The position numbers were made by a program, and so were the translations under genes. Below, in pieces: positions 16,048-33,322 of a DNA stretch of 64,000 nucleotides. The notes beneath the pieces are model-generated. The model was not told the DNA's origin, did not search any database, and saw only the letters and a program-made list of their open reading frames with translations. The stretch's first letter is position 1. Every line of letters begins with the position of its first letter. Source of the DNA: Escherichia coli (GTDB lineage: Bacteria; Pseudomonadota; Gammaproteobacteria; Enterobacterales; Enterobacteriaceae). The stretch lies in NCBI RefSeq assembly GCF_044324785.1, contig NZ_CP172127.1. One strand, written 5' to 3'.

Positions 16048-17334
16048 ATGGATGAATTCAAACCAGAAGACGAGCTGAAACCCGATCCCAGCGATCGTCG
16101 TACTGGTCGTTCTCGTCAATCTTCTGAACGTTCTGAGCGTACTGAACGTGGCGAACCGCAGATCAATTTTGATGATATTGAACTTGATGACACTGACGAT
16201 CGCCGTCCGACTCGTGCGCAAAAAGAGCGCAATGAGGAACCGGAAATCGAAGAAGAAATTGACGAATCCGAAGATGAAACCGTGGATGAAGAGCGCGTAG
16301 AGCGTCGTCCGCGTAAGCGCAAAAAAGCAGCCAGTAAACCCGCTTCTCGTCAGTATATGATGATGGGCGTCGGCATTCTGGTTCTCCTGCTGTTGATCAT
16401 CGGTATCGGTTCTGCGCTAAAAGCCCCCTCGACCTCTTCCAGCGATCAAACCGCGTCTGGCGAGAAGAGTATTGATCTTGCTGGCAATGCGACCGATCAG
16501 GCGAATGGCGTGCAGCCAGCGCCGGGAACCACGTCTGCGGAAAATACTCAGCAGGATGTTTCTCTGCCGCCGATCTCTTCTACGCCGACTCAAGGGCAAA
16601 CCCCGGCGTCAACGGATGGTCAACAACGTGTTGAAGTGCAGGGTGACCTGAACAATGCGCTGACCCAGCCACAAAATCAGCAACAGCTGAACAATGTGGC
16701 GGTCAATTCTACATTGCCGACTGAACCCGCGACGGTCGCGCCTGTTCGCAATGGCAATGCATCGCGTGACACGGCGAAAACGCAAACCGCTGAACGTCCG
16801 GCCACTACGCGTCCAGCTCGCCAGCAGGCGGTGATTGAACCGAAAAAACCGCAAGCAACCGTGAAAACGGAGCCGAAGCCGGTAGCACAGACGCCGAAGC
16901 GTACTGAACCAGCTGCTCCTGTGGCAAGCACAAAGGCACCGGCTGCGACTTCTACGCCAGCACCAAAAGAGACGGCGACTACGGCTCCAGTACAGACGGC
17001 ATCCCCGGCGCAAACCACGGCAACACCAGCCGCTGGAGGGAAGACCGCAGGTAATGTTGGTTCGTTGAAATCGGCACCGTCCAGCCATTACACTCTGCAG
17101 CTGAGCAGTTCCTCTAACTACGACAACCTGAACGGTTGGGCGAAGAAAGAGAATCTGAAAAACTACGTTGTCTATGAAACGACGCGTAATGGTCAGCCGT
17201 GGTATGTCCTGGTTTCTGGCGTGTACGCTTCGAAAGAAGAGGCGAAAAAAGCGGTATCTACATTGCCAGCAGATGTCCAGGCCAAAAACCCGTGGGCGAA
17301 ACCGCTGCGTCAGGTACAGGCCGATCTGAAGTAA
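16048..17334 (+). CDS. damX: DamX cell-division protein (low-complexity linker, C-terminal SPOR domain)
   Basis: ORF track 428 aa; acidic N-terminus, TM segment, long P/T/A/Q-rich tract, SPOR-like C-terminus. Confidence 0.92.
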
Positions 17335-17440
17335 TCAAGGTTATCTCCCGCAATGGTTTATCGTTGCGGGAGTTGCCTGAAGCGCTGGATGCTGTCGGAG
17401 CTTTCTCCACAGCCGGAGAAGGTGTAATTAGTTAGTCAGC

Positions 17441-18277
17441 ATGAAGAAAAATCGCGCTTTTTTGAAGTGGGCAGGGGGCAAGTATCCCCTGCTTGATGAT
17501 ATTAAACGGCATTTGCCTAAGGGCGAATGTCTGGTTGAGCCTTTTGTAGGTGCCGGGTCGGTGTTTCTCAACACCGACTTTTCTCGTTATATCCTTGCCG
17601 ATATCAATAGCGACCTGATCAGTCTCTATAACATTGTGAAGATGCGTACTGATGAGTACGTACAGGCCGCACGCGAGCTGTTTGTTCCCGAAACAAATTG
17701 CGCCGAGGTTTACTATCAGTTCCGCGAAGAGTTCAACAAAAGCCAGGATCCGTTCCGTCGGGCGGTACTGTTTTTATATTTGAACCGCTACGGTTACAAC
17801 GGTCTGTGTCGTTACAATCTGCGCGGTGAGTTTAACGTGCCGTTTGGCCGCTACAAAAAACCCTATTTCCCGGAAGCAGAGTTGTATCACTTCGCTGAAA
17901 AAGCGCAGAATGCCTTTTTCTACTGTGAGTCTTACGCCGATAGCATGGCGCGCGCAGATGATGCATCCGTCGTCTATTGCGATCCGCCTTATGCGCCGCT
18001 GTCTGCGACCGCCAACTTTACGGCGTATCACACAAACAGTTTTACGCTTGAACAACAAGCGCATCTGGCGGAGATCGCCGAAGGTCTGGTTGATCGCCAT
18101 ATTCCAGTGCTGATCTCCAATCACGATACGATGTTAACGCGTGAGTGGTATCAGCGCGCAAAATTGCATGTCGTCAAAGTTCGACGCAGTATAAGCAGCA
18201 ACGGCGGCACACGTAAAAAGGTGGACGAACTGCTGGCTTTGTACAAACCAGGAGTCGTTTCACCCGCGAAAAAATAA
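17441..18277 (+). CDS. dam: DNA adenine methyltransferase (GATC)
   Basis: ORF track 278 aa; catalytic DPPY motif ([12 protein letters not shown]). Confidence 0.96.
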
Positions 18278-18294
18278 TTCTCAAGGAGAAGCGG

Positions 18295-18972
18295 ATGAAA
18301 CAGTATTTGATTGCCCCCTCAATTCTGTCGGCTGATTTTGCCCGCCTGGGTGAAGATACCGCAAAAGCCCTGGCAGCTGGCGCTGATGTCGTGCATTTTG
18401 ACGTCATGGATAACCACTATGTTCCCAATCTGACTATTGGGCCAATGGTGCTGAAATCCTTGCGTAACTACGGCATTACCGCCCCTATCGACGTACACCT
18501 GATGGTGAAACCCGTCGATCGCATTGTGCCTGATTTCGCTGCCGCTGGTGCCAGCATCATTACCTTTCATCCAGAAGCCTCCGAGCATGTTGATCGCACG
18601 CTGCAACTGATTAAAGAAAATGGCTGTAAAGCGGGTCTGGTATTTAATCCGGCGACACCGCTGAGCTATCTGGATTACGTGATGGATAAGTTGGATGTGA
18701 TCCTGCTGATGTCCGTCAACCCTGGTTTCGGCGGTCAGTCTTTCATTCCGCAAACACTGGATAAACTGCGCGAAGTACGTCGTCGTATCGACGAGTCTGG
18801 CTTTGACATTCGACTGGAAGTTGACGGTGGCGTGAAGGTGAACAACATTGGCGAAATCGCTGCGGCGGGCGCGGATATGTTCGTTGCCGGTTCGGCAATC
18901 TTCGACCAGCCAGACTACAAAAAAGTCATTGATGAAATGCGCAGTGAACTGGCAAAGGTAAGTCATGAATAA
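18295..18972 (+). CDS. rpe: ribulose-5-phosphate 3-epimerase
   Basis: ORF track 225 aa; [21 protein letters not shown]. Confidence 0.95.
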
Positions 18973-19723
18973 GTTTGAAGATATTCGCGGCGTCGCTTTT
19001 GATCTCGATGGTACGCTGGTAGACAGTGCTCCTGGCTTGGCTACCGCAGTAGATATGGCGCTGTATGCGCTGGAGTTGCCCGTCGCAGGTGAAGAACGCG
19101 TTATAACCTGGATTGGTAACGGCGCAGATGTTCTGATGGAGCGCGCATTGACCTGGGCGCGTCAGGAACGTGCGACTCTGCGTAAAACAATGGGTAAACC
19201 GCCCGTTGATGACGACATTCCGGCAGAAGAACAAGTACGTATTCTGCGTAAACTGTTCGATCGCTACTATGGCGAGGTTGCCGAAGAGGGGACGTTTTTG
19301 TTCCCGCACGTTGCCGATACGCTGGGCGCATTGCAGGCTAAAGGCCTGCCGTTGGGCCTGGTCACCAACAAACCGACGCCGTTCGTCGCGCCGCTGCTGG
19401 AAGCCTTAGATATCGCTAAATACTTCAGCGTGGTGATTGGTGGTGATGATGTGCAAAACAAAAAACCGCATCCGGACCCGCTGTTACTGGTGGCTGAGCG
19501 GATGGGAATTGCTCCACAACAGATGCTGTTTGTTGGCGACTCACGCAATGATATTCAGGCAGCAAAAGCGGCAGGTTGCCCATCAGTTGGCTTAACCTAC
19601 GGATATAACTACGGCGAGGCTATCGATCTCAGCCAGCCTGATGTAATTTATCAGTCTATAAATGACCTTCTGCCCGCATTAGGGCTTCCGCATAGCGAAA
19701 ATCAGGAATCGAAAAATGACTAA
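18965..19723 (+). CDS. gph: phosphoglycolate phosphatase (HAD)
   Basis: ORF track 252 aa; HAD motif [10 protein letters not shown]; overlaps rpe stop. Confidence 0.94.
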
Positions 19724-20720
19724 GCCCATCGTTTTTAGTGGCGCACAGCCCTCAGGTGAATTGACCATTGGTAACTACATGGGTGCGCTGCGTCAGTGGG
19801 TAAACATGCAGGATGACTACCATTGCATTTACTGTATCGTTGACCAACACGCGATCACCGTGCGCCAGGATGCACAGAAGCTGCGTAAAGCGACGCTGGA
19901 TACGCTGGCCTTGTATCTGGCTTGTGGTATCGATCCTGAGAAAAGCACCATTTTTGTTCAGTCCCACGTGCCGGAACATGCGCAGTTAGGCTGGGCACTG
20001 AACTGCTATACCTACTTCGGCGAACTGAGCCGCATGACGCAGTTTAAAGATAAATCTGCGCGTTATGCCGAGAACATCAATGCTGGTCTGTTTGACTATC
20101 CGGTGCTGATGGCAGCGGACATCCTGCTGTATCAAACTAATCTGGTACCGGTGGGTGAAGACCAGAAACAGCACCTGGAACTGAGCCGCGATATCGCCCA
20201 GCGTTTCAACGCGCTGTATGGCGAGATCTTTAAAGTGCCGGAGCCGTTTATTCCGAAATCTGGCGCGCGCGTAATGTCGCTGCTGGAGCCGACCAAAAAG
20301 ATGTCCAAGTCTGACGATAACCGCAATAACGTTATCGGCCTGCTGGAAGATCCGAAATCGGTAGTGAAGAAAATCAAACGTGCGGTCACTGACTCCGACG
20401 AGCCGCCGGTAGTTCGCTACGATGTGCAGAACAAAGCGGGCGTTTCCAACCTGCTGGATATCCTTTCTGCGGTAACGGGCCAGAGCATCCCGGAACTGGA
20501 AAAACAGTTCGAAGGCAAGATGTATGGTCATCTGAAAGGTGAAGTGGCTGATGCCGTTTCCGGTATGCTGACTGAATTGCAGGAACGCTATCACCGTTTC
20601 CGCAACGATGAAGCCTTCCTGCAACAGGTGATGAAAGATGGCGCGGAAAAAGCCAGCGCGCACGCTTCCCGTACGCTAAAAGCGGTGTACGAAGCGATTG
20701 GTTTTGTGGCGAAGCCGTAA
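19716..20720 (+). CDS. trpS: tryptophanyl-tRNA synthetase
   Basis: ORF track 334 aa; class I motifs (TIGN, KMSKS). Confidence 0.96.
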
Positions 20721-20735
20721 TTTAACATTAATGCC

Positions 20736-20762
20736 AAAAACCGGGGAAACCCGGTTTTTTTT
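20736..20762 (+). terminator. rho-independent terminator of the aroK...trpS transcription unit
   Basis: aaaaa ccggg gaaa cccgg tttttttt, 16 nt after the trpS stop. Confidence 0.88.
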
Positions 20763-20880
20763 ATCCTCATTTGCAATAATCCGAAAAAATGTGAAGCGCC
20801 TCGCCGTTTCCACATCTCGCAGTTGCCACTTATCTTCATTTTTATGAAGATATAAATATTCACTTTATTGAAAATTTACT

Positions 20881-21786
20881 ATGCGTCGAACGTTTATCAA
20901 AAAAGAAGGCGTCGTCATCACGACACTGGCCCGTTATTTGTTGGGTGAAAAGTGCGGTAATCGACTGAAAACCATAGATGAGCTGGCAACTGAATGCCGT
21001 TCATCCGTTGGCCTGACGCAGGCCGCGTTGAAAACGCTGGAATCAAGCGGAGCGATACGGATTGAACGCCGTGGGCGCAATGGCAGTTATCTGGTGGAAA
21101 TGGATAACAAAGCATTGCTGAGTCATGTGGATATCAACAATGTGGTGTGCGCGATGCCCTTGCCCTATACCCGTTTGTACGAAGGCCTGGCGAGCGGATT
21201 GAAAGCTCAGTTTGATGGCATTCCTTTTTACTATGCGCATATGCGCGGCGCGGATATTCGCGTGGAGTGTTTACTTAACGGCGTGTATGACATGGCGGTT
21301 GTTTCCCGACTGGCGGCGGAAAGTTATCTCACGCAAAAAGGCTTATGCCTCGCGCTGGAGTTGGGGCCGCACACCTACGTTGGCGAGCACCAGTTGATTT
21401 GCCGTAAAGGCGAGTCCGCAAACGTGAAGCGTGTGGGGCTGGATAACCGTTCGGCGGATCAGAAAATCATGACCGATGTTTTTTTTGGCGATACGGATGT
21501 GGAACGAGTCGATCTCTCCTATCACGAGAGTTTACAACGCATTGTTAAAGGCGATGTTGATGCGGTTATCTGGAACGTGGTGGCGGAAAACGAACTGACC
21601 ATGCTGGGATTAGAAGCGACGCCGCTCACAGATGATCCGCGATTTTTACAGGCCACCGAAGCCGTGGTCCTGACGCGAGTCGATGATTACCCAATGCAAC
21701 AACTGCTGCGTGCAGTTGTTGATAAACATGCCCTGCTTGCCCATCAACAACGCGTGGTGAGTGGGGAACAGGAACCCAGTTATTAA
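20881..21786 (+). CDS. yhfZ: putative transcriptional regulator of the yhf cluster
   Basis: ORF track 301 aa; first gene of the co-directional yhfZ...yhfS block. Confidence 0.8.
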   Translation: MRRTFIKKEGVVITTLARYLLGEKCGNRLKTIDELATECRSSVGLTQAALKTLESSGAIRIERRGRNGSYLVEMDNKALLSHVDINNVVCAMPLPYTRLYEGLASGLKAQFDGIPFYYAHMRGADIRVECLLNGVYDMAVVSRLAAESYLTQKGLCLALELGPHTYVGEHQLICRKGESANVKRVGLDNRSADQKIMTDVFFGDTDVERVDLSYHESLQRIVKGDVDAVIWNVVAENELTMLGLEATPLTDDPRFLQATEAVVLTRVDDYPMQQLLRAVVDKHALLAHQQRVVSGEQEPSY

Positions 21787-21802
21787 ACGAAAGGCATCTG
21801 AT

Positions 21803-22165
21803 ATGGAAACCAGACTCAACCTGCTTTGCGATGCAGGCGTTATTGATAAGGACATCTGCAAAGGCATGATGCAGGTCGTCAAGGTACTGGAAACAGAGTG
21901 CCATCTGCCGGTGCGCAGTGAGCAAGGAACGATGGCAATGACACATATGGCGAGTGCACTGATGCGCAGTCGCCGTGGTGAAGAAATAGAGCCGCTGGAC
22001 GCCGAATTGCTGGCAGAACTGGCGCAATCCAGCCACTGGCAAGCCGTTGTGCAATTGCATCAGGTGTTGTTGAAGGAATTTACACTGGAAGTTAACCCGT
22101 GTGAAGAAGGCTATTTGCTGGCCAACCTTTATGGATTATGGATGGCTGCTAACGAAGAGGTTTGA
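21803..22165 (+). CDS. yhfY: small PRD-domain-like regulatory protein (family assignment from recollection)
   Basis: ORF track 134 aa trimmed to METRLNLLCD. Confidence 0.75.
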   Translation: METRLNLLCDAGVIDKDICKGMMQVVKVLETECHLPVRSEQGTMAMTHMASALMRSRRGEEIEPLDAELLAELAQSSHWQAVVQLHQVLLKEFTLEVNPCEEGYLLANLYGLWMAANEEV

Positions 22166-22195
22166 AGCTCCCGACAAATCCACGTCGCACAACCT

Positions 22196-22219
22196 AAATA
22201 TTCAAAAAAATGAATATTT
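22196..22219. promoter_or_regulatory. perfect 9-6-9 inverted repeat (candidate operator or RNA hairpin) in the yhfY-yhfX gap
   Basis: AAATATTCA aaaaaa TGAATATTT, 30 nt upstream of the yhfX ATG. Confidence 0.4.
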
Positions 22220-22248
22220 AATTCAAGGAACAGAAACGAGGCAACAAG

Positions 22249-23412
22249 ATGTTTGTAGAAGCATTGAAACGCCAGAACCCGGCGCTAATTTCCGCCGCAC
22301 TAAGCTTGTGGCAAAAGGGCAAGATCGCCCCGGACAGCTGGGTGATCGACGTGGATCAGATACTGGAAAACGGTAAGCGGCTGATTGAGACGGCGCGGCT
22401 TTACGGCATTGAACTGTATCTGATGACCAAGCAGTTTGGTCGTAATCCGTGGCTGGCGGAAAAACTGCTGCCATTAGGCTACAGCGGCATTGTGGCGGTG
22501 GATTACAAAGAGGCGCGAGTCATGCGCCGCGCCGGTTTGCCGGTGGCGCATCAGGGGCATCTGGTACAAATCCCTTGTCATCAGGTTGCTGACGCCGTTG
22601 CACAGGGCACCGACGTCATCACCGTGTTTACTCTCGACAAAGCGCGGGAAGTTTCTGCGGCAGCGGTGAAGGCCGGACGTGTGCAGTCTGTGCTGCTCAA
22701 AGTTTATAGCGACGATGATTTTCTTTATCCGGGGCAGGAGAGCGGTTTTGTACAGCATTCGCTGCACGAGGTGGTTGCTGAAATTAAGAAACTGCCGGGG
22801 TTGCATTTAGCTGGACTAACCCATTTCCCTTGCCTGCTTTGGGATGAGGCTGCCGGGAAAGTTTTGCCGACACCGAATCTTCACACGCTGATACAGGCAC
22901 GGGATCAACTGGCGAAATCTGGTATTGCGATTGAGCAACTGAACGCACCTTCTGCGACCAGCTGCACTTCGCTGCCATTGCTGGCGGAATACGGTGTGAC
23001 TCATGCCGAACCCGGTCATGCGCTGACGGGCACTATTCCGGCAAACCAGCAGGGCGATCAGCCTGAACGTATCGCGATGCTCTGGTTAAGTGAAATCTCC
23101 CATCATTTCCGTGGCGACAGCTACTGCTACGGCGGCGGTTACTACCGTCGTGGTCATGCGCAACATGCGCTGGTGTTTACGCCAGAAAATCAAAAGATTA
23201 CTGAAACCAATCTCAAAGCCGTGGATGACAGCAGTATCGACTACACCCTGCCGCTGGCAGGTGAGTTTCCGGTAAGCAGTGCAGTAGTGCTCTGTTTTCG
23301 CACGCAGATTTTTGTCACCCGTAGCGATGTGGTGTTGCTGTCCGGTATTCACCGTGGCGAACCAGAAATCGTCGGTCGTTATGACAGTCTTGGAAACTCT
23401 CTGGGGGCGTAA
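22249..23412 (+). CDS. yhfX: alanine-racemase-fold PLP-dependent protein, substrate unknown
   Basis: ORF track 387 aa. Confidence 0.82.
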
Positions 23413-24638
23413 TGGCGCGATTTGTGGTGTTAGTGATTGATAGCTTTGGCGTAGGGGCAATGAAAGATGTCACGTTGGTGCGTCCGCAGGATGCCGGGGC
23501 GAATACCTGTGGTCACATCCTGAGCCAGTTGCCGCATTTGCAGCTACCAGCGCTGGAGAAGCTGGGGCTAATCAACGCATTGGGTTATGCACCAGGTGAT
23601 ATGCAGCCGTCAGACTCCGCAACTTGGGGTGTGGCAGAGCTGCAACATGAAGGTGGCGATACCTTTATGGGGCATCAGGAAATTTTAGGCACGCGCCCGT
23701 TACCGCCGCTGCGGATGCCCTTTCGTGATGTGATTGACCGTGTTGAGCAGGCATTAGTTTCCGCTGGCTGGCTGGTTGAGCGTCGTGGCGATGATCTGCA
23801 ATTTCTGTGGGTCAATCAGGCGGTTGCGATTGGCGATAATCTCGAGGCGGATTTAGGCCAGGTCTATAACATCACCGCCAATCTCTCTGTGATCTCTTTT
23901 GACGACGCAATCAAAATTGGTCGTATTGTGCGTGAGCAGGTACAGGTCGGTCGGGTCATTACATTTGGTGGCCTGTTAACCGACAGTCAACGCATTCTCG
24001 ATGCCGCAGAAAGCAAAGAAGGGCGCTTTATTGGTATCAATGCGCCGCGTTCTGGCGCTTATGACAACGGCTTCCAGGTCGTGCATATGGGCTACGGTGT
24101 CGATGAGAAAGTGCAGGTGCCGCAAAAACTGTATGAAGCGGGCGTGCCAACCGTGCTGGTGGGTAAGGTGGCGGATATTGTCAGCAATCCTTATGGCGTG
24201 AGCTGGCAAAACCTGGTGGATAGCCAACGGATTATGGATATCACTCTCAACGAATTTAACACCCATCCGACGGCGTTTATTTGTACCAATATCCAGGAAA
24301 CCGACCTCGCTGGTCATGCAGAAGACGTCGCACGTTATGCCGAACGTTTGCAGGTCGTTGACCGTAACCTTGCCCGGCTTATTGAGGCGATGCAGCCAGA
24401 TGATTGCCTGGTCGTGATGGCGGATCACGGTAACGATCCGACCATTGGTCACAGCCACCATACCCGCGAAGTGGTGCCAGTGCTGGTTTATCAGCAAGGG
24501 ATGGTCGCTACGCAGCTCGGTGTGCGCACCACGCTTTCTGATGTGGGGGCTACCGTGTGTGAATTTTTCCGTGCGCCACCGCCACAAAATGGTCGCTCTT
24601 TTCTTTCCTCCCTCCGGTTTGCAGGAGACACCCTATGA
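23412..24638 (+). CDS. yhfW: phosphopentomutase-like metalloenzyme, putative mutase
   Basis: ORF track 408 aa; N-terminus [17 protein letters not shown] resembles the DeoB-type metal-binding start. Confidence 0.82.
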
Positions 24639-25513
24639 GTATTGATCCGACGGGTTACACCCTCGCCCATGAGCATCTGCATATTGATCTCTCCGGCTTT
24701 AAAAACAACGTGGACTGCCGCCTTGATCAGTATGCGTTCATTTGCCAGGAGATGAACGACCTGATGGCCCAGGGCGTGCGTAATGTGATTGAGATGACCA
24801 ACCGTTACATGGGGCGAAATGCGCAATTTATGCTCGATGTGATGCACGAAACTGGCATCAACGTGGTGGCCTGTACCGGTTATTACCAGGATGCGTTTTT
24901 CCCGCAACATGTGGCGACCCGCAGCGTACAGGAACTGGCGCAGGAGATGGTCGATGAAATTGATCAGGGTATCGATGGCACGGAACTGAAAGCCGGGATC
25001 ATCGCGGAGATCGGCTCCAGCGAAGGGAAGATTACGCCGCTGGAAGAGAAGGTGTTTATTGCCGCCGCGCTGGCACATAACCAGACCGGACGCCCGATCT
25101 CCACGCATACGTCGTTCAGCACGATGGGGCTGGAACAACTGGCTCTGTTGCAAGCCCACGGAGTTAATCTTTCGCGCGTCACCGTTGGTCACTGCGATCT
25201 GAAAGACAACCTCGACAACATTTTGAAGATGATCGATCTCGGCGCGTATGTGCAGTTCGACACCATCGGCAAGAACAGTTACTACCCGGACGAAAGGCGC
25301 ATTGCGATGCTCCACGCGCTACGTGACCGTGGTTTGCTGAACCGCGTCATGCTGTCGATGGATATTACGCGCCGCTCCCATTTAAAAGCCAACGGTGGTT
25401 ATGGCTATGACTATTTATTGACCACCTTTATTCCGCAATTGCGCCAGTCAGGATTCAGTCAGGCCGATGTGGATGTGATGTTACGTGAAACTCCCTCTCA
25501 ATTTTTCCAATAA
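24635..25513 (+). CDS. php: phosphotriesterase-homology protein (amidohydrolase superfamily)
   Basis: ORF track 292 aa; N-terminal HxH metal motif ([14 protein letters not shown]). Confidence 0.9.
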
Positions 25514-25523
25514 GGACAGACTC

Positions 25524-25877
25524 ATGAAAAAGATTGGTGTTGCAGGCTTACAGCGTGAGCAGATTAAAAAAACCATTGAAGCGACGGCTCCTGGCTGTTT
25601 TGAAGTTTTCATTCACAACGACATGGAAGCGGCAATGAAAGTCAAATCCGGGCAACTGGATTACTACATCGGCGCGTGTAATACCGGTGCGGGCGCGGCA
25701 TTGTCGATTGCCATCGCGGTGATTGGCTATAACAAAAGTTGCACCATTGCCAAACCAGGCATTAAAGCGAAAGACGAACATATCGCCAAAATGATCGCCG
25801 AAGGGAAAGTGGCGTTTGGGCTTTCCGTTGAGCACGTCGAACACGCGATTCCGATGCTGATTAACCATCTGAAATAA
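25524..25877 (+). CDS. yhfU: small conserved protein of unknown function
   Basis: ORF track 130 aa trimmed to MKKIGVAGLQ (117 aa). Confidence 0.78.
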   Translation: MKKIGVAGLQREQIKKTIEATAPGCFEVFIHNDMEAAMKVKSGQLDYYIGACNTGAGAALSIAIAVIGYNKSCTIAKPGIKAKDEHIAKMIAEGKVAFGLSVEHVEHAIPMLINHLK

Positions 25878-25888
25878 AAGGCACGACT

Positions 25889-27193
25889 ATGGATCTGTAT
25901 ATTCAGATTATCGTGGTGGCGTGCCTGACGGGTATGACATCGCTTCTGGCGCATCGCTCGGCGGCCGTTTTTCATGACGGTATCCGCCCGATCCTGCCGC
26001 AACTGATTGAAGGCTATATGAACCGTCGCGAGGCGGGGAGTATCGCTTTTGGTCTGAGCATTGGTTTTGTGGCTTCGGTGGGGATCTCTTTTACCCTGAA
26101 AACCGGACTGCTCAACGCATGGTTACTCTTTCTTCCTACCGATATCCTCGGCGTACTGGCGATAAACAGCCTGATGGCGTTTGGTCTTGGCGCTATCTGG
26201 GGCGTGTTGATCCTTACTTGCCTGTTACCGGTAAACCAGCTGCTGACCGCGCTACCGGTGGATGTATTAGGTAGCCTGGGGGAATTAAGCTCGCCGGTGG
26301 TTTCAGCTTTTGCACTGTTCCCGTTGGTGGCGATTTTCTACCAGTTTGGCTGGAAGCAAAGTCTGATCGCCGCCGTGGTGGTACTGATGACCCGTGTGGT
26401 GGTAGTGCGCTATTTCCCGCATCTCAATCCGGAATCCATCGAAATCTTTATTGGCATGGTGATGCTGCTGGGGATCGCGATAACTCACGACCTGCGTCAT
26501 CGTGATGAAAATGATATTGATGCCAGCGGGCTTTCGGTGTTTGAAGAACGCACGTCGCGGATTATCAAAAACTTACCGTATATCGCTATTGTCGGGGCGC
26601 TGATTGCCGCCGTTGCCAGCATGAAGATTTTTGCTGGCAGTGAAGTGTCGATCTTCACACTGGAGAAAGCATATTCCGCAGGCGTAACGCCGGAACAATC
26701 ACAAACGCTGATTAACCAGGCAGCTCTGGCGGAATTTATGCGCGGGCTGGGTTTTGTACCGTTGATTGCCACCACCGCGTTAGCCACTGGTGTGTATGCA
26801 GTTGCGGGCTTTACCTTTGTTTATGCGGTGGGCTATCTCTCGCCGAATCCGATGGTTGCAGCGGTATTAGGCGCAGTGGTTATTTCGGCGGAAGTCCTGC
26901 TGCTTCGTTCGATCGGCAAATGGCTGGGGCGCTATCCGTCGGTGCGTAATGCGTCAGATAACATCCGTAACGCCATGAATATGCTGATGGAAGTGGCGTT
27001 GCTGGTCGGTTCGATTTTCGCAGCAATTAAAATGGCGGGTTATACCGGATTTTCTATCGCAGTTGCCATTTACTTCCTCAACGAATCCCTGGGCCGTCCG
27101 GTACAGAAAATGGCGGCACCGGTCGTGGCAGTAATGATCACCGGTATTCTGCTGAATGTTCTTTACTGGTTTGGCCTGTTCGTTCCGGCTTAA
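25889..27193 (+). CDS. yhfT: polytopic inner-membrane protein (putative transporter)
   Basis: ORF track 434 aa, hydrophobic throughout. Confidence 0.85.
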   Translation: MDLYIQIIVVACLTGMTSLLAHRSAAVFHDGIRPILPQLIEGYMNRREAGSIAFGLSIGFVASVGISFTLKTGLLNAWLLFLPTDILGVLAINSLMAFGLGAIWGVLILTCLLPVNQLLTALPVDVLGSLGELSSPVVSAFALFPLVAIFYQFGWKQSLIAAVVVLMTRVVVVRYFPHLNPESIEIFIGMVMLLGIAITHDLRHRDENDIDASGLSVFEERTSRIIKNLPYIAIVGALIAAVASMKIFAGSEVSIFTLEKAYSAGVTPEQSQTLINQAALAEFMRGLGFVPLIATTALATGVYAVAGFTFVYAVGYLSPNPMVAAVLGAVVISAEVLLLRSIGKWLGRYPSVRNASDNIRNAMNMLMEVALLVGSIFAAIKMAGYTGFSIAVAIYFLNESLGRPVQKMAAPVVAVMITGILLNVLYWFGLFVPA

Positions 27194-27204
27194 GGAAGGC
27201 ACCT

Positions 27205-28290
27205 ATGAAGACGTATCCTTTGCAAAGCCTGACGCTTATTGAGGCGCAGCAAAAGCAGTTTGCGCTGGTGGACACGATTTGCCGCCATTTTCCCGGCAGC
27301 GAGTTTCTTACCCGCGGGGATTTGGGCTTAACGCCGGGGCTGAATCAACCGCGCATTACCCAGCGAGTGGAACAGGTGCTGGCTGATGCATTTCACGCAC
27401 AGGCTGCGGCGCTGGTACAGGGCGCGGGTACTGGCGCGATCCGTGCGGCGTTGGCGGCTTTGCTCATACCGGGGCAGCGTCTTCTGGTGCATGACGCGCC
27501 TGTTTACCCGACGACTCAGGTCATTATTGAGCAGATGGGGCTGACGCTTATTACTGCTAATTTCAATGACCTGTCGGCACTTAAGCAGGTCGTCGAAGAG
27601 CAACAACCGGATGCGGCTCTGGTGCAGCATACGCGCCAGCAGCCGCAGGACGGGTACATTCTGGCAGATGTGCTGGCAACGTTGCGCTCGGCTGGCGTTC
27701 CTGCATTAACCGATGACAACTATGCGGTGATGAAGGTAGCGCGAATTGGCTGCGAATGCGGGGCAAATGTCTCGACTTTTTCCTGCTTCAAGCTGTTTGG
27801 GCCGGAGGGTGTTGGCGCGGTGGTAGGCGATGCCGATGTTATTAGTCGGATTCGCGCCACGCTCTACTCCGGCGGCAGCCAGATTCAGGGCGCTCAGGCG
27901 TTGGAAGTCTTGCGTGGGCTGGTGTTTGCGCCAGTGATGCACGCGGTGCAGGCGGGGGTATCTGAACGGTTGCTGGCCTTGCTCAACGGTGGTGCAGTTC
28001 CGGAAGTGAAAAGCGCCGTCATTGCCAATGCACAGTCGAAGGTGTTGATTGTCGAGTTTCATCAGCCGATTGCCGCCAGAGTGCTGGAAGAGGCGCAAAA
28101 GCGCGGTGCCTTGCCTTACCCGGTTGGTGCAGAGTCGAAATATGAAGTTCCGCCACTTTTTTATCGACTTTCCGGAACGTTTCGCCAGGCGAATCCGCAA
28201 CTCGAACATTACGCGATTCGTATTAACCCAAATCGCAGCGGTGAAGAGACGGTGCTGCGGATTTTGCGTGAGAGTATTGCGAGTATTTAA
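27205..28290 (+). CDS. yhfS: conserved protein of unknown function (possibly PLP-dependent; uncertain)
   Basis: ORF track 361 aa; last gene of the yhf block. Confidence 0.8.
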   Translation: MKTYPLQSLTLIEAQQKQFALVDTICRHFPGSEFLTRGDLGLTPGLNQPRITQRVEQVLADAFHAQAAALVQGAGTGAIRAALAALLIPGQRLLVHDAPVYPTTQVIIEQMGLTLITANFNDLSALKQVVEEQQPDAALVQHTRQQPQDGYILADVLATLRSAGVPALTDDNYAVMKVARIGCECGANVSTFSCFKLFGPEGVGAVVGDADVISRIRATLYSGGSQIQGAQALEVLRGLVFAPVMHAVQAGVSERLLALLNGGAVPEVKSAVIANAQSKVLIVEFHQPIAARVLEEAQKRGALPYPVGAESKYEVPPLFYRLSGTFRQANPQLEHYAIRINPNRSGEETVLRILRESIASI

Positions 28291-28326: not shown

Positions 28327-28395
28327 AGCGCCGGACGGTCCCCGCAACGCGCCAGCATCGCCGGATGCGATGCTGGCGCATCTTATCCGGCCTAC
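28327..28395. repeat. REP/BIME element between convergent yhfS and frlR
   Basis: cgccggatgcgatgctggcgcatcttatccggcctac matches the canonical REP palindrome; partial second unit upstream. Confidence 0.75.
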
Positions 28396-28397
28396 GG

Positions 28398-29129
28398 TTA
28401 ATGTCTTTTATTATCAATCGTTAAGGTGATGCGGTTGGCGCGGCAGAAGAGTTCGGAGACGTGCACCGGTTTGTTATTCTGATCAAAGGCGATTTTGCTG
28501 ATGCGAAACAGCGGTTCGCCCAGTTCGCATTTCAGCCATTTTGCCTGCGGGCGGGTGGCGGCAAAAATATCGATAGTCTTTTTATCGCTGACCACTCGCG
28601 TGTCAAAACGCTCCTGAAATAACTGATAGGTGGAGCTTCCTTCGACGTAAATCTCATCAAAGTCAGGATAACGCGACAGCGGGATCCAGGAACTATCAAT
28701 AAACAGCGGCTCTTTATCGAGATACATCACCCGGCAAAGATGGAACACTTCGCTGTTACCGGGGATGTTCAGCTTTTCGCAAAACGGCGCGGCGCTGACC
28801 CGTTCCTGTTCGATCACTTTCTCTTTCGTCGCCTTGCCTTGTGAGACGCCAAAATCGGTAAAACCACTGACAGTAAGCAGGGCGTTTTCAACTTTCTGGC
28901 TTTGTACAAAGGTGCCTTTGCCCTGCCAGCGGATCAGTACGCCGTCTGCCACTAAGTCGCTGATGGCTTTGCGAATGGTAATGCGGCTGACGTTATATTG
29001 CGTACAAAGCTCGTTTTCGGTAGGGATCTGTTGCCCGGCCTGGTAAACCCCCTGCGCGATATCATCCAGCAACCGCTGGCGGACGGTAGCGTAGAGGAGT
29101 TGATGAGAGTAGCGGTCCGTAGCTGACAT
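28398..29129 (-). CDS. frlR: GntR-family transcriptional regulator of the fructoselysine operon
   Basis: ORF track 265 aa trimmed to MSATDRYSHQLLYATV (243 aa); N-terminal HTH. Confidence 0.88.
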   Translation of the reverse strand: MSATDRYSHQLLYATVRQRLLDDIAQGVYQAGQQIPTENELCTQYNVSRITIRKAISDLVADGVLIRWQGKGTFVQSQKVENALLTVSGFTDFGVSQGKATKEKVIEQERVSAAPFCEKLNIPGNSEVFHLCRVMYLDKEPLFIDSSWIPLSRYPDFDEIYVEGSSTYQLFQERFDTRVVSDKKTIDIFAATRPQAKWLKCELGEPLFRISKIAFDQNNKPVHVSELFCRANRITLTIDNKRH

Positions 29130-29228
29130 AATCGACCCTGAAATAAAGAATGAATTACACGGATTATAGGGTCGTTTTCCGGCAAGTAACAGCATGTTGG
29201 CGTGAAGATGCTCACGCCAACGTTATGC

Positions 29229-30014
29229 CTACCAGGCACCGTGGTACTGAATAGTTTGTGCCGCGCACGCCGTTCCCTGCGCCATCGCCTGCGGTAATGT
29301 CATCCCCGCAGACCAGCCGCAAAGGAATCCGGCAATGAACGAATCTCCGGCACCCATGGTGTCGATAACCGTCACCGGTTCAGGATCCTGACGCCAGAAC
29401 TGCGCGCCATCCCAGGCAATACTGCCGTTTTCACCCAGCGTGACAATCACCACGCCTGCGCCACGGGCAACAATCGCCTTCATCTTCAGACGTAACGCTT
29501 CGTCTTCTTGCGGCGCGGAGGCAAAGGCAAAATCGAGATGCGGCACCAGTGTCTGCCAGAGCGGGCTGTCCCACTTGTCGGAGAAGTCGAAAGCGGTAAG
29601 TTTTCCCGCTGCGTGCAGGTGCGGGAATGCGTCCTCCGCATGTCCCCAGATTGCCGCGTGCACAATGTCATATTGCGCCAGCCAGGCGTAATCCTCTTCG
29701 CTCAGGGCAAAGTCGGCCATCACGCCTTCGGTGTAGTCGCCAAAAACGCGATCGTTGTCGTGCAGTTCCACCTGAGTTTGTGCGGTAACGCCGTGTTTCG
29801 TATGGACATGGCTGATATCGACGTCCATGCGGGCAAGATCCTGCTTCAGCTTTGTGCCGTAGTCATCATCTCCCACCCAGGTAATGCATCCCGGCTTTAT
29901 GCCGTAGCGAGTGCAGTACACCGCCACGTTCACCGCATTACCGCCAGAAAACGCTTTATTCAGTTGCGGGTAGATATCGACGCAGTTATCGCCGATTGTC
30001 GCCAGGTTTTTCAT
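29229..30014 (-). CDS. frlD: fructoselysine 6-kinase (PfkB-family sugar kinase)
   Basis: ORF track 261 aa; PfkB C-terminal motif DTMGAGDSF. Confidence 0.9.
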
Positions 30015-30841
30015 CTCGCATCCTCCGGCAGCAGCGCGCGAAAGCGTTCCAGCGCCTGGCGAGCGTAGAGTCTGGGTTCGTTCATATACATCGTTACCAG
30101 TTCCACTGTGCAGTACCCCTCATAACCCCGGTCGATAATATCGCGCATCAACTCCCGCAGCGGCATTTTGCCTTCGCCGGGAATGTAATGCGTGTCGCTG
30201 GCCCCGTCGCTGTCGACAATATGCAAATGACGCAATTTATCGCCCAGTTTGTCGAAATAACTCATCACCGGTTCCGCCTGGACATACGGCGCACAAATGT
30301 CGACCATGCTGAACAGACGCGGCGAAGGCACCAGCGCCAGCGCATGAAGCACATCATTGGCATTACACACGACGTTCGATTCATACGGCGTTAACGGTTC
30401 GAGGATCAGATCCATGCCGATGTTTTCCGCGTACTCACACAGTTCGCTTAGGTTCTCTGCCAGCCGCCCCCAGATAACGTTAGGCGGCGTGAGATAACCC
30501 GCGTGGGCCGCGGAAATCAGCGTATAACCGGCGTTCATCTCTTTTGCCATATCCATCGCCAGCTTGATCATGTCGAGGCTTTCGCGACGCATATGTTCAT
30601 CGCCCAGCATCATGTTATACGGATAGCCATTAGTTTCTGGCGTATAACCGACAATCGGCATCTGATACGTCTGCGCCAGCGCTTTAATGTGTTTGATGCC
30701 GCCCGCTTTTAAGTCCGGCGCGAACGCGTGCGGGCGACCGCCCCAAATTTCGATGCCGTCGTAACCCAGCTCGCTTGCATCACGAAATGCTTGTTCAATA
30801 GGCAGCCGCTGGTGGCCGCAGGTAAACATACCTGTTTTCAT
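30011..30841 (-). CDS. frlC: fructoselysine 3-epimerase (xylose-isomerase-like TIM barrel)
   Basis: ORF track 324 aa trimmed to [16 protein letters not shown] (276 aa). Confidence 0.88.
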
Positions 30842-30890
30842 CGGGTAACTCCTTGCGTAAATCCGGCCCGTTGCCGGGCCGGGAGAGGGA

Positions 30891-31913
30891 TTAATATTCC
30901 ACCAGACCACCGTAATAGCGGCGTTCATCCGGGTTGTGATCTTTGTAAATAGACAGGTAGTAGCAGAGCCACTCCATCGGCACAAACATCAGGAACGGTG
31001 CCAGCCACGGGTGCAGCCCTTGCGAAATTTCGGCGTAATCAATGACGATCACGTTGTCAGTACGCTGTTTAACAAAGTTAATGGCGCGTTCGGTGGTGTG
31101 GCGACTTTCGTCATTGCCGAGCAGGAACAGGAACGGAACGCCCGGCTCGACAATTTCCAGTGGGCCGTGGCGGAACTCTCCGCTTTCGATCACGCAGCCG
31201 TGCGTCCAGGTAAATTCCATTAGCGTTACAATGCCTTCTTTGTAACCCAGCGGGCGCAGCGGGCCTGCGGCAACCGTGTAAATCATCGGCCACTGGCTGG
31301 CCTGTTCACCAAGCTGGCGGCCTTTTTCTTCCCAGGTGCGTACCAGATGACCGAGCGCATTCGGCAGCTGTTTGAGATCGTTTTTGATCTTGCCGATTTC
31401 CGCGTTCGGCGCGAGGCGGGTGATCATCTCCAGCACCACGCTGTAGCAGAGCAGCAGATGAATTTCCCAAATACAGTCGGCCTGATAATCAATGCTAAAT
31501 TCCGCCGCCGAGGTAATCGGGCTGTCCGCGCGTTTGGTGAACGCCGCAGTGAGCGCGCCGCAGGCCCGGCCCAGCTCCAGCGCTTTGATCACCTCTTCGG
31601 TTTTACCGTAGTCAGAAACGCCAATCACCGCGCAACGATTGTCGAGGCGATACGGGGTGTTATCGCAGAACTCCCAGCCGGAAATGGCGTAGACCTGAAG
31701 ATCGGAAAAGCGATCCGCCAGATGTTTCGCCGTTTGCGCCGCGTTGAGTGGCGATCCGCAGGCAACGAAATAAATACGATTAATGTCGCGCTTCACCATC
31801 TCTTCCACGATGGCATGCACCAGCGGAACGTCATGGCTGAGAACTTTTTCCACTTCCTGAACCATATTTTCGGTGACCAGAAAGTCCACGGTGCTTTTAT
31901 CAATATCCAACAT
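30891..31913 (-). CDS. frlB: fructoselysine-6-phosphate deglycase (SIS-domain protein)
   Basis: ORF track 347 aa trimmed to [11 protein letters not shown] (340 aa). Confidence 0.88.
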
Positions 31914-31933
31914 TTTATTTTCTCCAGATAACA

Positions 31934-33322
<1,389 letters not shown>

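Follow-up and report, generated by a model that had tools for sequence, protein, structure and literature searches.

What does the eight-gene cluster yhfZ-yhfY-yhfX-yhfW-php-yhfU-yhfT-yhfS do for Escherichia coli? The cluster occupies positions 20881-28290 of the window analysed here, a 64,000-nucleotide stretch of contig NZ_CP172127.1 (RefSeq assembly GCF_044324785.1). It has long been one of the y-gene puzzles of the bacterium that has been studied best, and is among the largest intact operons of E. coli K-12 still without an assigned function; crystal structures of four of its proteins date back more than ten years. A first-pass annotation of the sequence had proposed a catabolic or salvage pathway for an amino or phospho compound and knew of no assigned substrate; in agreement with the latter, the full-text literature searched on the cluster and its families gave no published substrate assignment. 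We found that this so far function-less cluster is a widely conserved nutrient-breakdown module, which probably serves a nitrogen-containing sugar and is probably tied to the sugar phosphotransferase system (PTS). The earlier observation was correct and its general interpretation reasonable and partly supported: the genes form a coherent conserved module whose composition fits such a pathway, but the proposal needs corrections.

The eight genes, all encoded on the same strand, are the following:

20881-21786, plus strand: yhfZ, 301 amino acids, predicted transcription regulator (HTH_41 plus YhfZ_C, the latter periplasmic-binding-protein-like)
21803-22165, plus strand: yhfY, 120 amino acids from ATG, predicted stand-alone PTS regulation domain (PRD) protein
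22249-23412, plus strand: yhfX, 387 amino acids, predicted fold-type III (alanine-racemase-fold) pyridoxal phosphate (PLP) enzyme
23412-24638, plus strand: yhfW, 408 amino acids, phosphopentomutase-like metalloenzyme (alkaline-phosphatase superfamily)
24635-25513, plus strand: php, 292 amino acids, phosphotriesterase-homology protein, a predicted binuclear-metal hydrolase of the amidohydrolase superfamily
25524-25877, plus strand: yhfU, 117 amino acids from ATG, DUF2620 protein with an RpiB/LacAB-like fold and an invariant Cys loop
25889-27193, plus strand: yhfT, 434 amino acids, polytopic membrane protein and founding member of PF10797, presumed permease
27205-28290, plus strand: yhfS, 361 amino acids, predicted fold-type I PLP enzyme, accessory cluster member

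All eight open reading frame boundaries agree with the RefSeq calls in the closest E. coli genome (99.1% identical), and the genes follow the trpS terminator as tightly spaced, co-directional neighbours, as originally described. The mechanically called reading frame of yhfY begins at a GTG (position 21761). Spacing is 160 nt between trpS and yhfZ, 16 nt for Z-Y, 83 nt for Y-X, -1 nt for X-W, -4 nt for W-php, 10 nt for php-U, and 11 nt for both U-T and T-S, so that every junction within the cluster except Y-X is tight. Overlapping stop and start codons do exist, at two junctions (X-W and W-php) rather than at several. Shine-Dalgarno sequences are recognisable ahead of all genes but yhfZ, and the base composition of the region is ordinary. 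The cluster (at least 80% of the region) is carried by 5059 of the 5426 complete E. coli genomes (93%). Compared with E. albertii and Citrobacter, dN/dS is 0.03-0.14 across the eight genes, lowest for yhfU and yhfT and 0.04-0.06 for yhfZ, and all eight are under strong purifying selection. This selection, together with the wide retention in E. coli, marks the observation as real and the genes as functional.

When one genome per species was scanned for YhfT relatives, 251 stretches were found, and the eight E. coli proteins were mapped onto the best 80 of these 251 loci and onto 11 loci from metagenome and genome look-ups; four further loci were interpreted from their own gene tables. In Enterobacterales, Vibrionaceae, Fusobacteria, Clostridia and Bacilli the yhf gene set recurs with its genes rearranged, and it persists where YhfT is just 27-31% identical. 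Gene orders were as follows (single letters stand for yhf genes, L numbers for individual loci):

Enterobacteriaceae: ZYXW-php-UTS
Yersinia: ZYX(-W)-php-UT
Vibrio and Photobacterium: ZY-php-UT-XW
Sebaldella: ZY-php-UT-amidase-S-X-W
L006: Z-PRD-U-T-PTE-X-W
L088: PRD-U-T-PTE-X-W-HAD
L090: W-X-U-T
L098: GntR-U-T-PTE-S

A gene set retained while its order is shuffled is strong evidence for one functional module, and places the transporter pair and YhfX (and YhfW) at its heart. With synteny over several phyla and low dN/dS, the eight-gene arrangement is not due to chance. The genes yhfX and yhfW are almost always adjacent. Yersinia, Vibrionaceae and several Clostridia have no yhfS, and yhfW is cleanly lost in several Yersinia (among L039, L041, L043-L046, L049 and L050); Enterovibrio (L061, L066 and L070) retains only yhfU-yhfT-yhfX-yhfW and has no php, yhfZ or yhfY. 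The core consists of yhfU-yhfT, yhfX, yhfW, php and yhfZ/yhfY, and yhfS is accessory. The idea of a single eight-gene unit is therefore not upheld, because yhfS and yhfW are missing in some lineages and two promoters are probably regulated. The yhf genes themselves were already catalogued and the novelty lies in their context, not in their discovery; new here are the defined core, the PTS and amino-sugar associations, the RpiB-fold partner of a presumed permease without structural relatives and a conserved candidate operator.

Which compound such a module might handle is suggested by its neighbours. A PRD protein occurs in most clusters, and no kinase gene was found in any mapped cluster. In two clostridial clusters a gene for a general PTS protein overlaps the yhfW stop codon at the same place, HPr in L080 (TIGR01003, 91.6 bits, cut-off 47.9) and a full Enzyme I in L076. 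A Lac/cellobiose-family Enzyme II C component (EIIC) is encoded beside the cluster in nine loci from two phyla (Vibrionaceae and a distant Firmicute), accompanied in six of the nine, from Vibrio and Photobacterium, by IIA, IIB and a DUF7916 protein of 296 amino acids (L064, L065, L052, L059, L072 and L073). L064 and L065 carry a second yhfZ paralogue with the Lac-family PTS (the PTS block of L064 spans 17211-21293). A porin-like gene lies near the Lac-family PTS in L072. In four Bacilli genera, a glucosamine-6-phosphate deaminase of the NagB equivalog (TIGR00502, 261.7 bits, cut-off 236.9) is encoded 13-37 nt past the last yhf gene, irrespective of the order of yhfX and yhfW. A secreted protein of 605-771 amino acids with RTX-like repeats and a C-terminal CBM5/12 chitin-binding module directly flanks the cluster in five loci of Photobacterium and one Enterobacter (L064 13822-16137, L059 13942-16125, L065, L083 and L040 2854-4671). 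One cluster (L088) includes a Cof-type sugar phosphatase.

We tentatively favour, at a little less than an even chance, a substrate-inducible, PTS-linked catabolic module for an aminated carbohydrate. The substrate might be an amino sugar, with or without an N-acyl group, the acid or lactone of an amino sugar, or a conjugate of the glycosylamine type. We infer the steps of the pathway, their order, the identity of the substrate and the PTS phosphotransfer from homology and gene context, as follows. YhfZ, with its helix-turn-helix and ligand-binding domains, would repress two promoters through the palindrome AATATTCA-N6-TGAATATT, while the PRD protein YhfY would relay the phosphorylation state of the PTS through His48. 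YhfT would import the compound with its obligate partner YhfU. Since no kinase is encoded, the compound would become, or already arrive, phosphorylated, with the phosphate coming from the PTS or from the substrate itself. Php may then strip an N-acyl group or open a lactone or ester to give a free amine or acid, and YhfX may racemise, epimerise or deaminate at the amine-bearing carbon. Where present, YhfS would add a second PLP-dependent step. YhfW would reposition the phosphate, and the product would enter central metabolism as glucosamine 6-phosphate, fructose 6-phosphate or an equivalent, in Bacilli by way of the cluster-encoded NagB-type deaminase.

Several lines of evidence support an aminated carbohydrate. 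The clusters examined have no kinase, yet YhfW has phosphotransfer motifs, and sugar phosphates are the substrates of proteins related to Php, YhfW and YhfU. The gene set kept across phyla under purifying selection, the invariant metal ligands of Php and PLP lysines of YhfX and YhfS, and the conserved palindrome at both promoters also count in its favour. The PRD of YhfY, the HPr and Enzyme I genes and the Lac-type EIIC support the PTS link; NagB in Bacilli and the CBM5/12 protein support the link to amino sugars. Hydrolysis of an amide followed by a PLP-dependent step has a precedent in OngB (an amidohydrolase deacetylase) and OngC (a fold-type III PLP D-glucosaminate deaminase), which convert N-acetyl-glucosaminic acid to 2-keto-3-deoxygluconate (PMC9537276), and N-acetyl amides are hydrolysed by PTER, a mammalian member of the PTE family (PMC11374699), so that Php need not be a lactonase.

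Other observations weigh against this reading. The proposed steps come throughout from homology and gene context. NagB is found only in the Bacilli clusters, HPr and Enzyme I in two clusters only, and the Lac-type PTS in a minority. For YhfW, YhfU and Php, the closest homologues suggest pentofuranose phosphates and not hexosamines, and one distant YhfT adjoins a nucleoside-phosphorylase-family gene. A plain amino-acid substrate is also compatible with YhfX and YhfS. Finally, because several Yersinia have no yhfW and Enterovibrio has no php, yhfZ or yhfY, the proposed order of steps cannot be universal.

How specific are the enzymes themselves? Profile-HMM comparison bore out the domain assignments made at first sight, with matches to Ala_racemase_N in YhfX, Metalloenzyme in YhfW, PTE in Php, the YhfT family in YhfT and Aminotran_1_2 in YhfS. 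Curated cut-offs were missed for all characterised sub-families tested (DeoB, OPH, phospho-furanose lactonase, Orr and methionine gamma-lyase, and RpiB at the sequence level). YhfX carries Ala_racemase_N and YhfX-like_C domains, and its structure (4KBX) is still titled "uncharacterized protein". Beyond itself, the family profile reaches only alanine racemases (5e-4), D-threonine aldolases (3e-3) and YggS. Residues K61 (in MTKQ), H104, C195, H285 and R301 are invariant among 16 diverse members, and by its profile matches YhfX is a predicted fold-type III PLP enzyme of its own family, having an Ala_racemase_N barrel with the conserved PLP lysine. Scores were too low to place it in a characterised sub-family (alanine, ornithine or lysine racemase, D-serine dehydratase or D-threonine aldolase), as in the comparison with the ornithine racemase Orr (31.9 against a cut-off of 480). 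YhfS (Aminotran_1_2 plus YhfS-like_C; 4J8L, likewise titled "uncharacterized protein") has invariant K196 and D170 and is a fold-type I PLP enzyme, again of its own family. Its family profile next reaches PLP enzymes of Cys/Met metabolism at 2e-10 to 1e-8 (5IJG at 2e-10). Assignment to this gamma family was rejected, the best match being methionine gamma-lyase with 34 bits against 549.7.

Alternatively, the cluster might salvage an amino compound that is not a carbohydrate. This could be an N-acylated or D-amino acid, a lactone or lactam of an amino acid (of the homoserine-lactone or ornithine/lysine-lactam type) or an O-phospho amino acid. In such a pathway YhfT would be an anion or amino-acid permease and YhfW a phosphatase or mutase. 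Php would deacylate the compound or open its ring, YhfX would racemise it, and YhfS would act as a gamma/beta-lyase or an aminotransferase. Orr (7e-8) and the alanine racemases, which among named proteins come closest to YhfX, would suit these roles, as would the Cys/Met-metabolism lyases nearest to YhfS and the activity of PTER on N-acetyltaurine and N-acetyl-beta-alanine. A truncated amidase-signature-like protein is encoded between yhfT and yhfS in two Fusobacteria (L063 11347-12378 and L085 1410-2450), and a 768-amino-acid protein of Clostridium citroniae (AFDB G5HJH7), about half of which is YhfT-like, is named amidase-domain-containing. The weak structural neighbours of YhfT are anion transporters, and a D-2-hydroxyacid dehydrogenase is encoded in or near two clusters. 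This explanation nevertheless seems somewhat unlikely to us. PRD proteins, HPr, Enzyme I and the Lac-family PTS are hallmarks of carbohydrate systems, NagB is present in the four Bacilli clusters, it is hard to see what a phosphopentomutase-like and an RpiB-fold protein would do with a plain amino acid, and yhfS, which encodes the most amino-acid-like enzyme, is accessory.

YhfW passes a single curated model, NF009049 (737 bits), which RefSeq names "phosphopentomutase"; we found no experimental basis for this name. It falls below the DeoB equivalog cut-offs (146 against 341.2 for TIGR01696 and 184 against 256 for NF003766), and residues ~100-235, the cap region, align poorly. In the alignment with the Bacillus cereus phosphopentomutase 3M8W, the motifs DS.G.G, GDT.xGH.EI.G, D..GH, ADHGNDP and HTRE are kept, which indicates that YhfW retains the phosphopentomutase catalytic core with its metal ligands and Thr nucleophile motifs. 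Php (Pfam PTE; NF007373, 644.6 bits against a cut-off of 486; structures 1BF6 and 4LEF) is a PTE-family protein with all six binuclear metal ligands, and these (H12, H14, E125, H158, H186 and D243) are invariant in 15 cluster-linked homologues. It fell short of the sub-families of known substrate (100 bits against 500 for OPH and 98.1 against 630 for the phospho-furanose lactonase PhFuoseLconase).

The superfamily of YhfW, which contains the alkaline phosphatases, raises the alternative of phosphorus scavenging from an amino-organophosphate or aminophosphonate, in which YhfW would be a phosphatase or would hydrolyse C-P or P-O bonds, and YhfS would be an aminotransferase like PhnW. Weak matches of YhfW to Phosphodiest and PhpG and of YhfS to PhnW-AepZ (0.0077) would fit, as would acid phosphatase genes that follow yhfT in two enterobacterial loci and the phosphate presumably bound in the active site of the Php structure 4LEF. 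All of these similarities, however, are at noise level or generic to the superfamily. Neither a Pho box nor phn genes were noticed, the PTS, PRD and NagB associations would be left unexplained, yhfS is accessory and several Yersinia are without yhfW. We therefore regard phosphorus scavenging as very improbable.

Within the transporter pair, yhfU is directly upstream of yhfT in every locus that holds both, and yhfT without a recognisable yhfU is found in a few loci (L005 and L095-L097). The "small protein" of the first-pass annotation, YhfU, can be refined to an RpiB-fold protein of 117 amino acids. Its Pfam family is DUF2620, not RpiB; the fold is RpiB-like and the Cys loop (Cys52) is invariant. 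Similarity to RpiB at the sequence level is not significant (E 0.16-0.46 in the PDB profile search, probability 2% in hhalign against E. coli RpiB). Only the Cys-x-Thr-Gly-x-Gly loop matches, the His-Asn position of RpiB is not conserved, and the alignment ends at RpiB residue 124 of 149. In RpiB, the C-terminal region carries phosphate-binding arginines. Of what defines an RpiB/LacAB isomerase, YhfU thus shows the fold, but neither a significant sequence match nor the full catalytic and phosphate-binding set. For YhfT (PF10797, the Pfam YhfT family) no structural relative was found, the weak structural neighbours being ArsB, DASS and Pho90. In many database entries (E. coli proteins P0002, P0006, P0011, P0018, P0076 and P0081) yhfT is fused to php, yhfU or yhfS, or is truncated; at 98-100% identity to the window, they resemble artefacts of frameshifts or of gene calling and not natural fusions.

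Pairs of yhfU and yhfT without the enzymes (L003 9586-11341, L004 and L087 1432-3107), and yhfT alone (L005 1068-2342), sit in probable spirochaete and Firmicute contigs, which indicates that the transporter pair can work independently of the pathway. The linkage to general PTS proteins (HPr in L080 and Enzyme I in L076) and to PRD regulators looked for in a PTS Enzyme II was found. Could YhfU and YhfT then be a new class of PTS-coupled uptake system? We consider this doubtful, and on present evidence unlikely. If it were so, the RpiB-fold YhfU would use Cys52 as a phosphocarrier or act as a transport-coupled isomerase, and HPr~P, possibly by way of YhfU or of the Thr-phosphoenzyme YhfW, would replace an ATP kinase. 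The dihydroxyacetone kinase DhaKLM has a logic comparable to such a soluble PTS-dependent phosphotransfer branch.

The fold of YhfU also opens a different explanation, deglycation of a pentose-series glycated amine such as a ribulosamine or ribosylamine phosphate, which would be thematically akin to the neighbouring fructoselysine (frl) operon. Here YhfU would be the deglycase, as an RpiB-type isomerase; the task of YhfW would be the conversion of pentose phosphates, and that of the PLP enzymes the handling of the released amine. This would suit the RpiB fold and retained Cys-x-Thr loop of YhfU, the intact catalytic core of the phosphopentomutase-like YhfW and the presence of phospho-furanose lactonases in the Php family. 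It would also suit L095 (10001-11978), where a distant YhfT (26% identity) without YhfU is followed 14 nt later by a PNP_UDP_1 gene, a pairing which hints that some YhfT family members carry ribosylated compounds. YhfU, however, differs from RpiB in the missing C-terminal region and the lost His-Asn pair, and enzyme-free U+T pairs fit a transport subunit better than a pathway enzyme. The adjacency to frl in the window would favour deglycation too, but it is strain-specific and not present outside E. coli. Overall, we find deglycation distinctly improbable.

The frlRDCBA operon is complete at 28401-33322 on the minus strand, convergent to yhfS (NCBIfam equivalogs FrlD, FrlC, FrlB and FrlA). The first-pass annotation was right that it adjoins the cluster here, but this is not a clue to function. 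The junction is yhfS-yhfL-cysG, without frl, in strain KE55, the closest relative within E. coli, as well as in L001/L002, which identifies frl as a strain-variable insertion in the window. No frl genes were found beside the cluster in any non-E. coli locus mapped, and frl has been described as characteristically absent from phylogroup B2 (PMC13001218). Both are small catabolic operons, frl serving an amine-sugar conjugate under a GntR-type repressor; unlike yhf, it relies on an APC transporter, a kinase that uses ATP and a deglycase with a SIS domain, and the two share no homologous parts. The yhf cluster is not part of the frl system.

How would an aminated carbohydrate be sensed? The "two putative regulators" first proposed turned out to be one transcription regulator and one protein of another kind. 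YhfZ, a GntR-like regulator, scores above the full-length equivalog threshold (NCBIfam NF041241 YhfZ_full, 373.5 bits, cut-off 260), with Pfam matches to HTH_41 (1.4e-18) and YhfZ_C (4.8e-84); the structure of its C-terminal domain is 2OZZ. YhfY has no DNA-binding domain, which points to a regulatory partner and not a second transcription factor. The E. coli protein matches Pfam PRD at 0.0099, spanning 83 of the 90 model positions, and 12 of the 17 YhfY family members match at E<=0.001 (best 2.4e-11). H48, R55 and E101 are invariant in the family, within a TH..A..R motif; a second His is kept in Clostridia and is Asn in Enterobacteria and Vibrio. From this profile match and the conserved, candidate phosphorylatable histidine we assign YhfY to the PRD family. 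Its match to TIGR03582, the EF_0829/AHA_3910 PRD family, is under the cut-off (1.3e-6, 28.7 against 69.35).

Two candidate operators precede the genes:

20855-20876, no strand: candidate operator O1, palindrome AATATTCA-N6-TGAAAATT, ending 4 nt ahead of the yhfZ ATG
22195-22220, no strand: candidate operator O2, perfect palindrome TAAATATTCA-N6-TGAATATTTA, 29-54 nt upstream of the yhfX ATG

O1 has one mismatch to the consensus AATATTCA-N6-TGAATATT; O2 has none (perfect at 22197-22218), and its 10-nt arms are 100% complementary. Exactly two sites with at most two mismatches occur in the window, where 0.16 would be expected at up to three mismatches. The position of O1 is kept in Citrobacter, Klebsiella, Buttiauxella, Cedecea, Trabulsiella and Yersinia, as is that of O2, which is perfect or near-perfect about 52 nt before yhfX in more than 30 enterobacterial loci. 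Recognisable variants of the palindrome occur in Photobacterium and one Clostridiales locus. We propose the palindrome as a candidate YhfZ operator, to which YhfZ may bind. There are probably two regulated promoters, for yhfZY and yhfXW-php-yhfUTS, rather than one, as also read from a published operon list (PMC4448311). A second perfect 9-nt inverted repeat, TATCTTCAT-N4-ATGAAGATA, lies at 20831-20852, just upstream of O1 in the yhfZ promoter region.

Does the module correspond to a known pathway? Its logic resembles that of Nag, Dga, Ong and Ula, and homologous parts are shared only at the superfamily level. In the textbook Nag pathway (NagE-NagA-NagB), the N-acyl amino sugar phosphate that the PTS delivers loses its acyl group to an enzyme of the amidohydrolase superfamily before NagB deaminates or isomerises it, and NagB is the very enzyme appended to the four Bacilli yhf clusters. 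Php, however, belongs to the PTE family and is not NagA, the yhf transporter is not a Glc-family Enzyme II, and yhf adds two PLP enzymes and a phosphomutase that Nag does not need. The Salmonella D-glucosaminate system (DgaABCD-DgaE-DgaF) works with a PTS of the mannose family, a fold-type I lyase like SelA and 2-keto-3-deoxy-6-phosphogluconate aldolase. As in our proposal, a PTS-phosphorylated amino-sugar acid is deaminated there by a PLP enzyme (PMC9529869). In contrast to Dga, the yhf core has a fold-type III enzyme, no aldolase and a different permease; only one distant protein among the YhfS-like proteins examined gave a weak SelA match.

The oxidised-chitin (GlcNAc1A) Ong pathway of Pseudoalteromonas is similar in that an amidohydrolase frees an amine, the resulting D-amino acid, derived from an amino sugar, is the substrate of a fold-type III PLP enzyme, and the pathway is controlled by a repressor (PMC9537276). 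It differs in its unphosphorylated substrates, its SSS-family transporter and OngB, which is D-aminoacylase-like and not of the PTE family. The Ong cluster also has no phosphomutase, PRD protein or RpiB-fold protein, and YhfX and OngC share their fold type. In L-ascorbate utilisation (the UlaABC PTS and the UlaG lactonase) and with PTE-family phospho-sugar lactonases of the Lmo2620 type, a lactone is imported by a PTS and the phosphorylated lactone is hydrolysed. The phospho-furanose lactonase family is homologous to Php; unlike yhf, Ula has no PLP enzymes and has an SgaT-type transporter. The uncharacterised TIGR03582 (EF_0829/AHA_3910) cluster is likewise built around a small stand-alone PRD protein, to which YhfY is related below the cut-off as given above. 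Its other members are different from the yhf genes.

Two further features mark the boundaries of the cluster in the window:

20736-20759, plus strand: trpS intrinsic terminator-like hairpin (10-bp stem, 4-nt loop and T-run, from the terminator scan), upstream boundary
28350-28395, no strand: REP-like palindromic element, CGCCAGCATCGCCGGATGCGATGCTGGCG...TTATCCGGCCTAC, downstream boundary between the convergent yhfS and frlR

We take the second to be a repetitive extragenic palindromic (REP) element, of the kind found in bacterial interspersed mosaic elements, from its consensus; the terminator scan called no canonical intrinsic terminator after yhfS. Elsewhere, in a Firmicutes metagenome-assembled genome (L077, 7466-10604), a CutC/PFL2-type glycyl-radical enzyme (under the equivalog cut-offs) and its likely activase are encoded ~850 nt downstream of yhfW.

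Comparison across genomes confines the search to phosphorylated carbohydrates that bear an amine and makes the yhf puzzle more directly testable, with experimental handles in the two operator sites, His48 of YhfY, Cys52 of YhfU, the coupling to NagB in Bacilli and the clostridial HPr and Enzyme I. The cluster holds two families without a characterised member (YhfT and YhfU/DUF2620) as well as two PLP-enzyme families. Once identified, the substrate would point to a further nutrient niche of gut Enterobacteriaceae and marine Vibrionaceae, and its identification could also uncover a new mechanism by which transport is coupled to the PTS.

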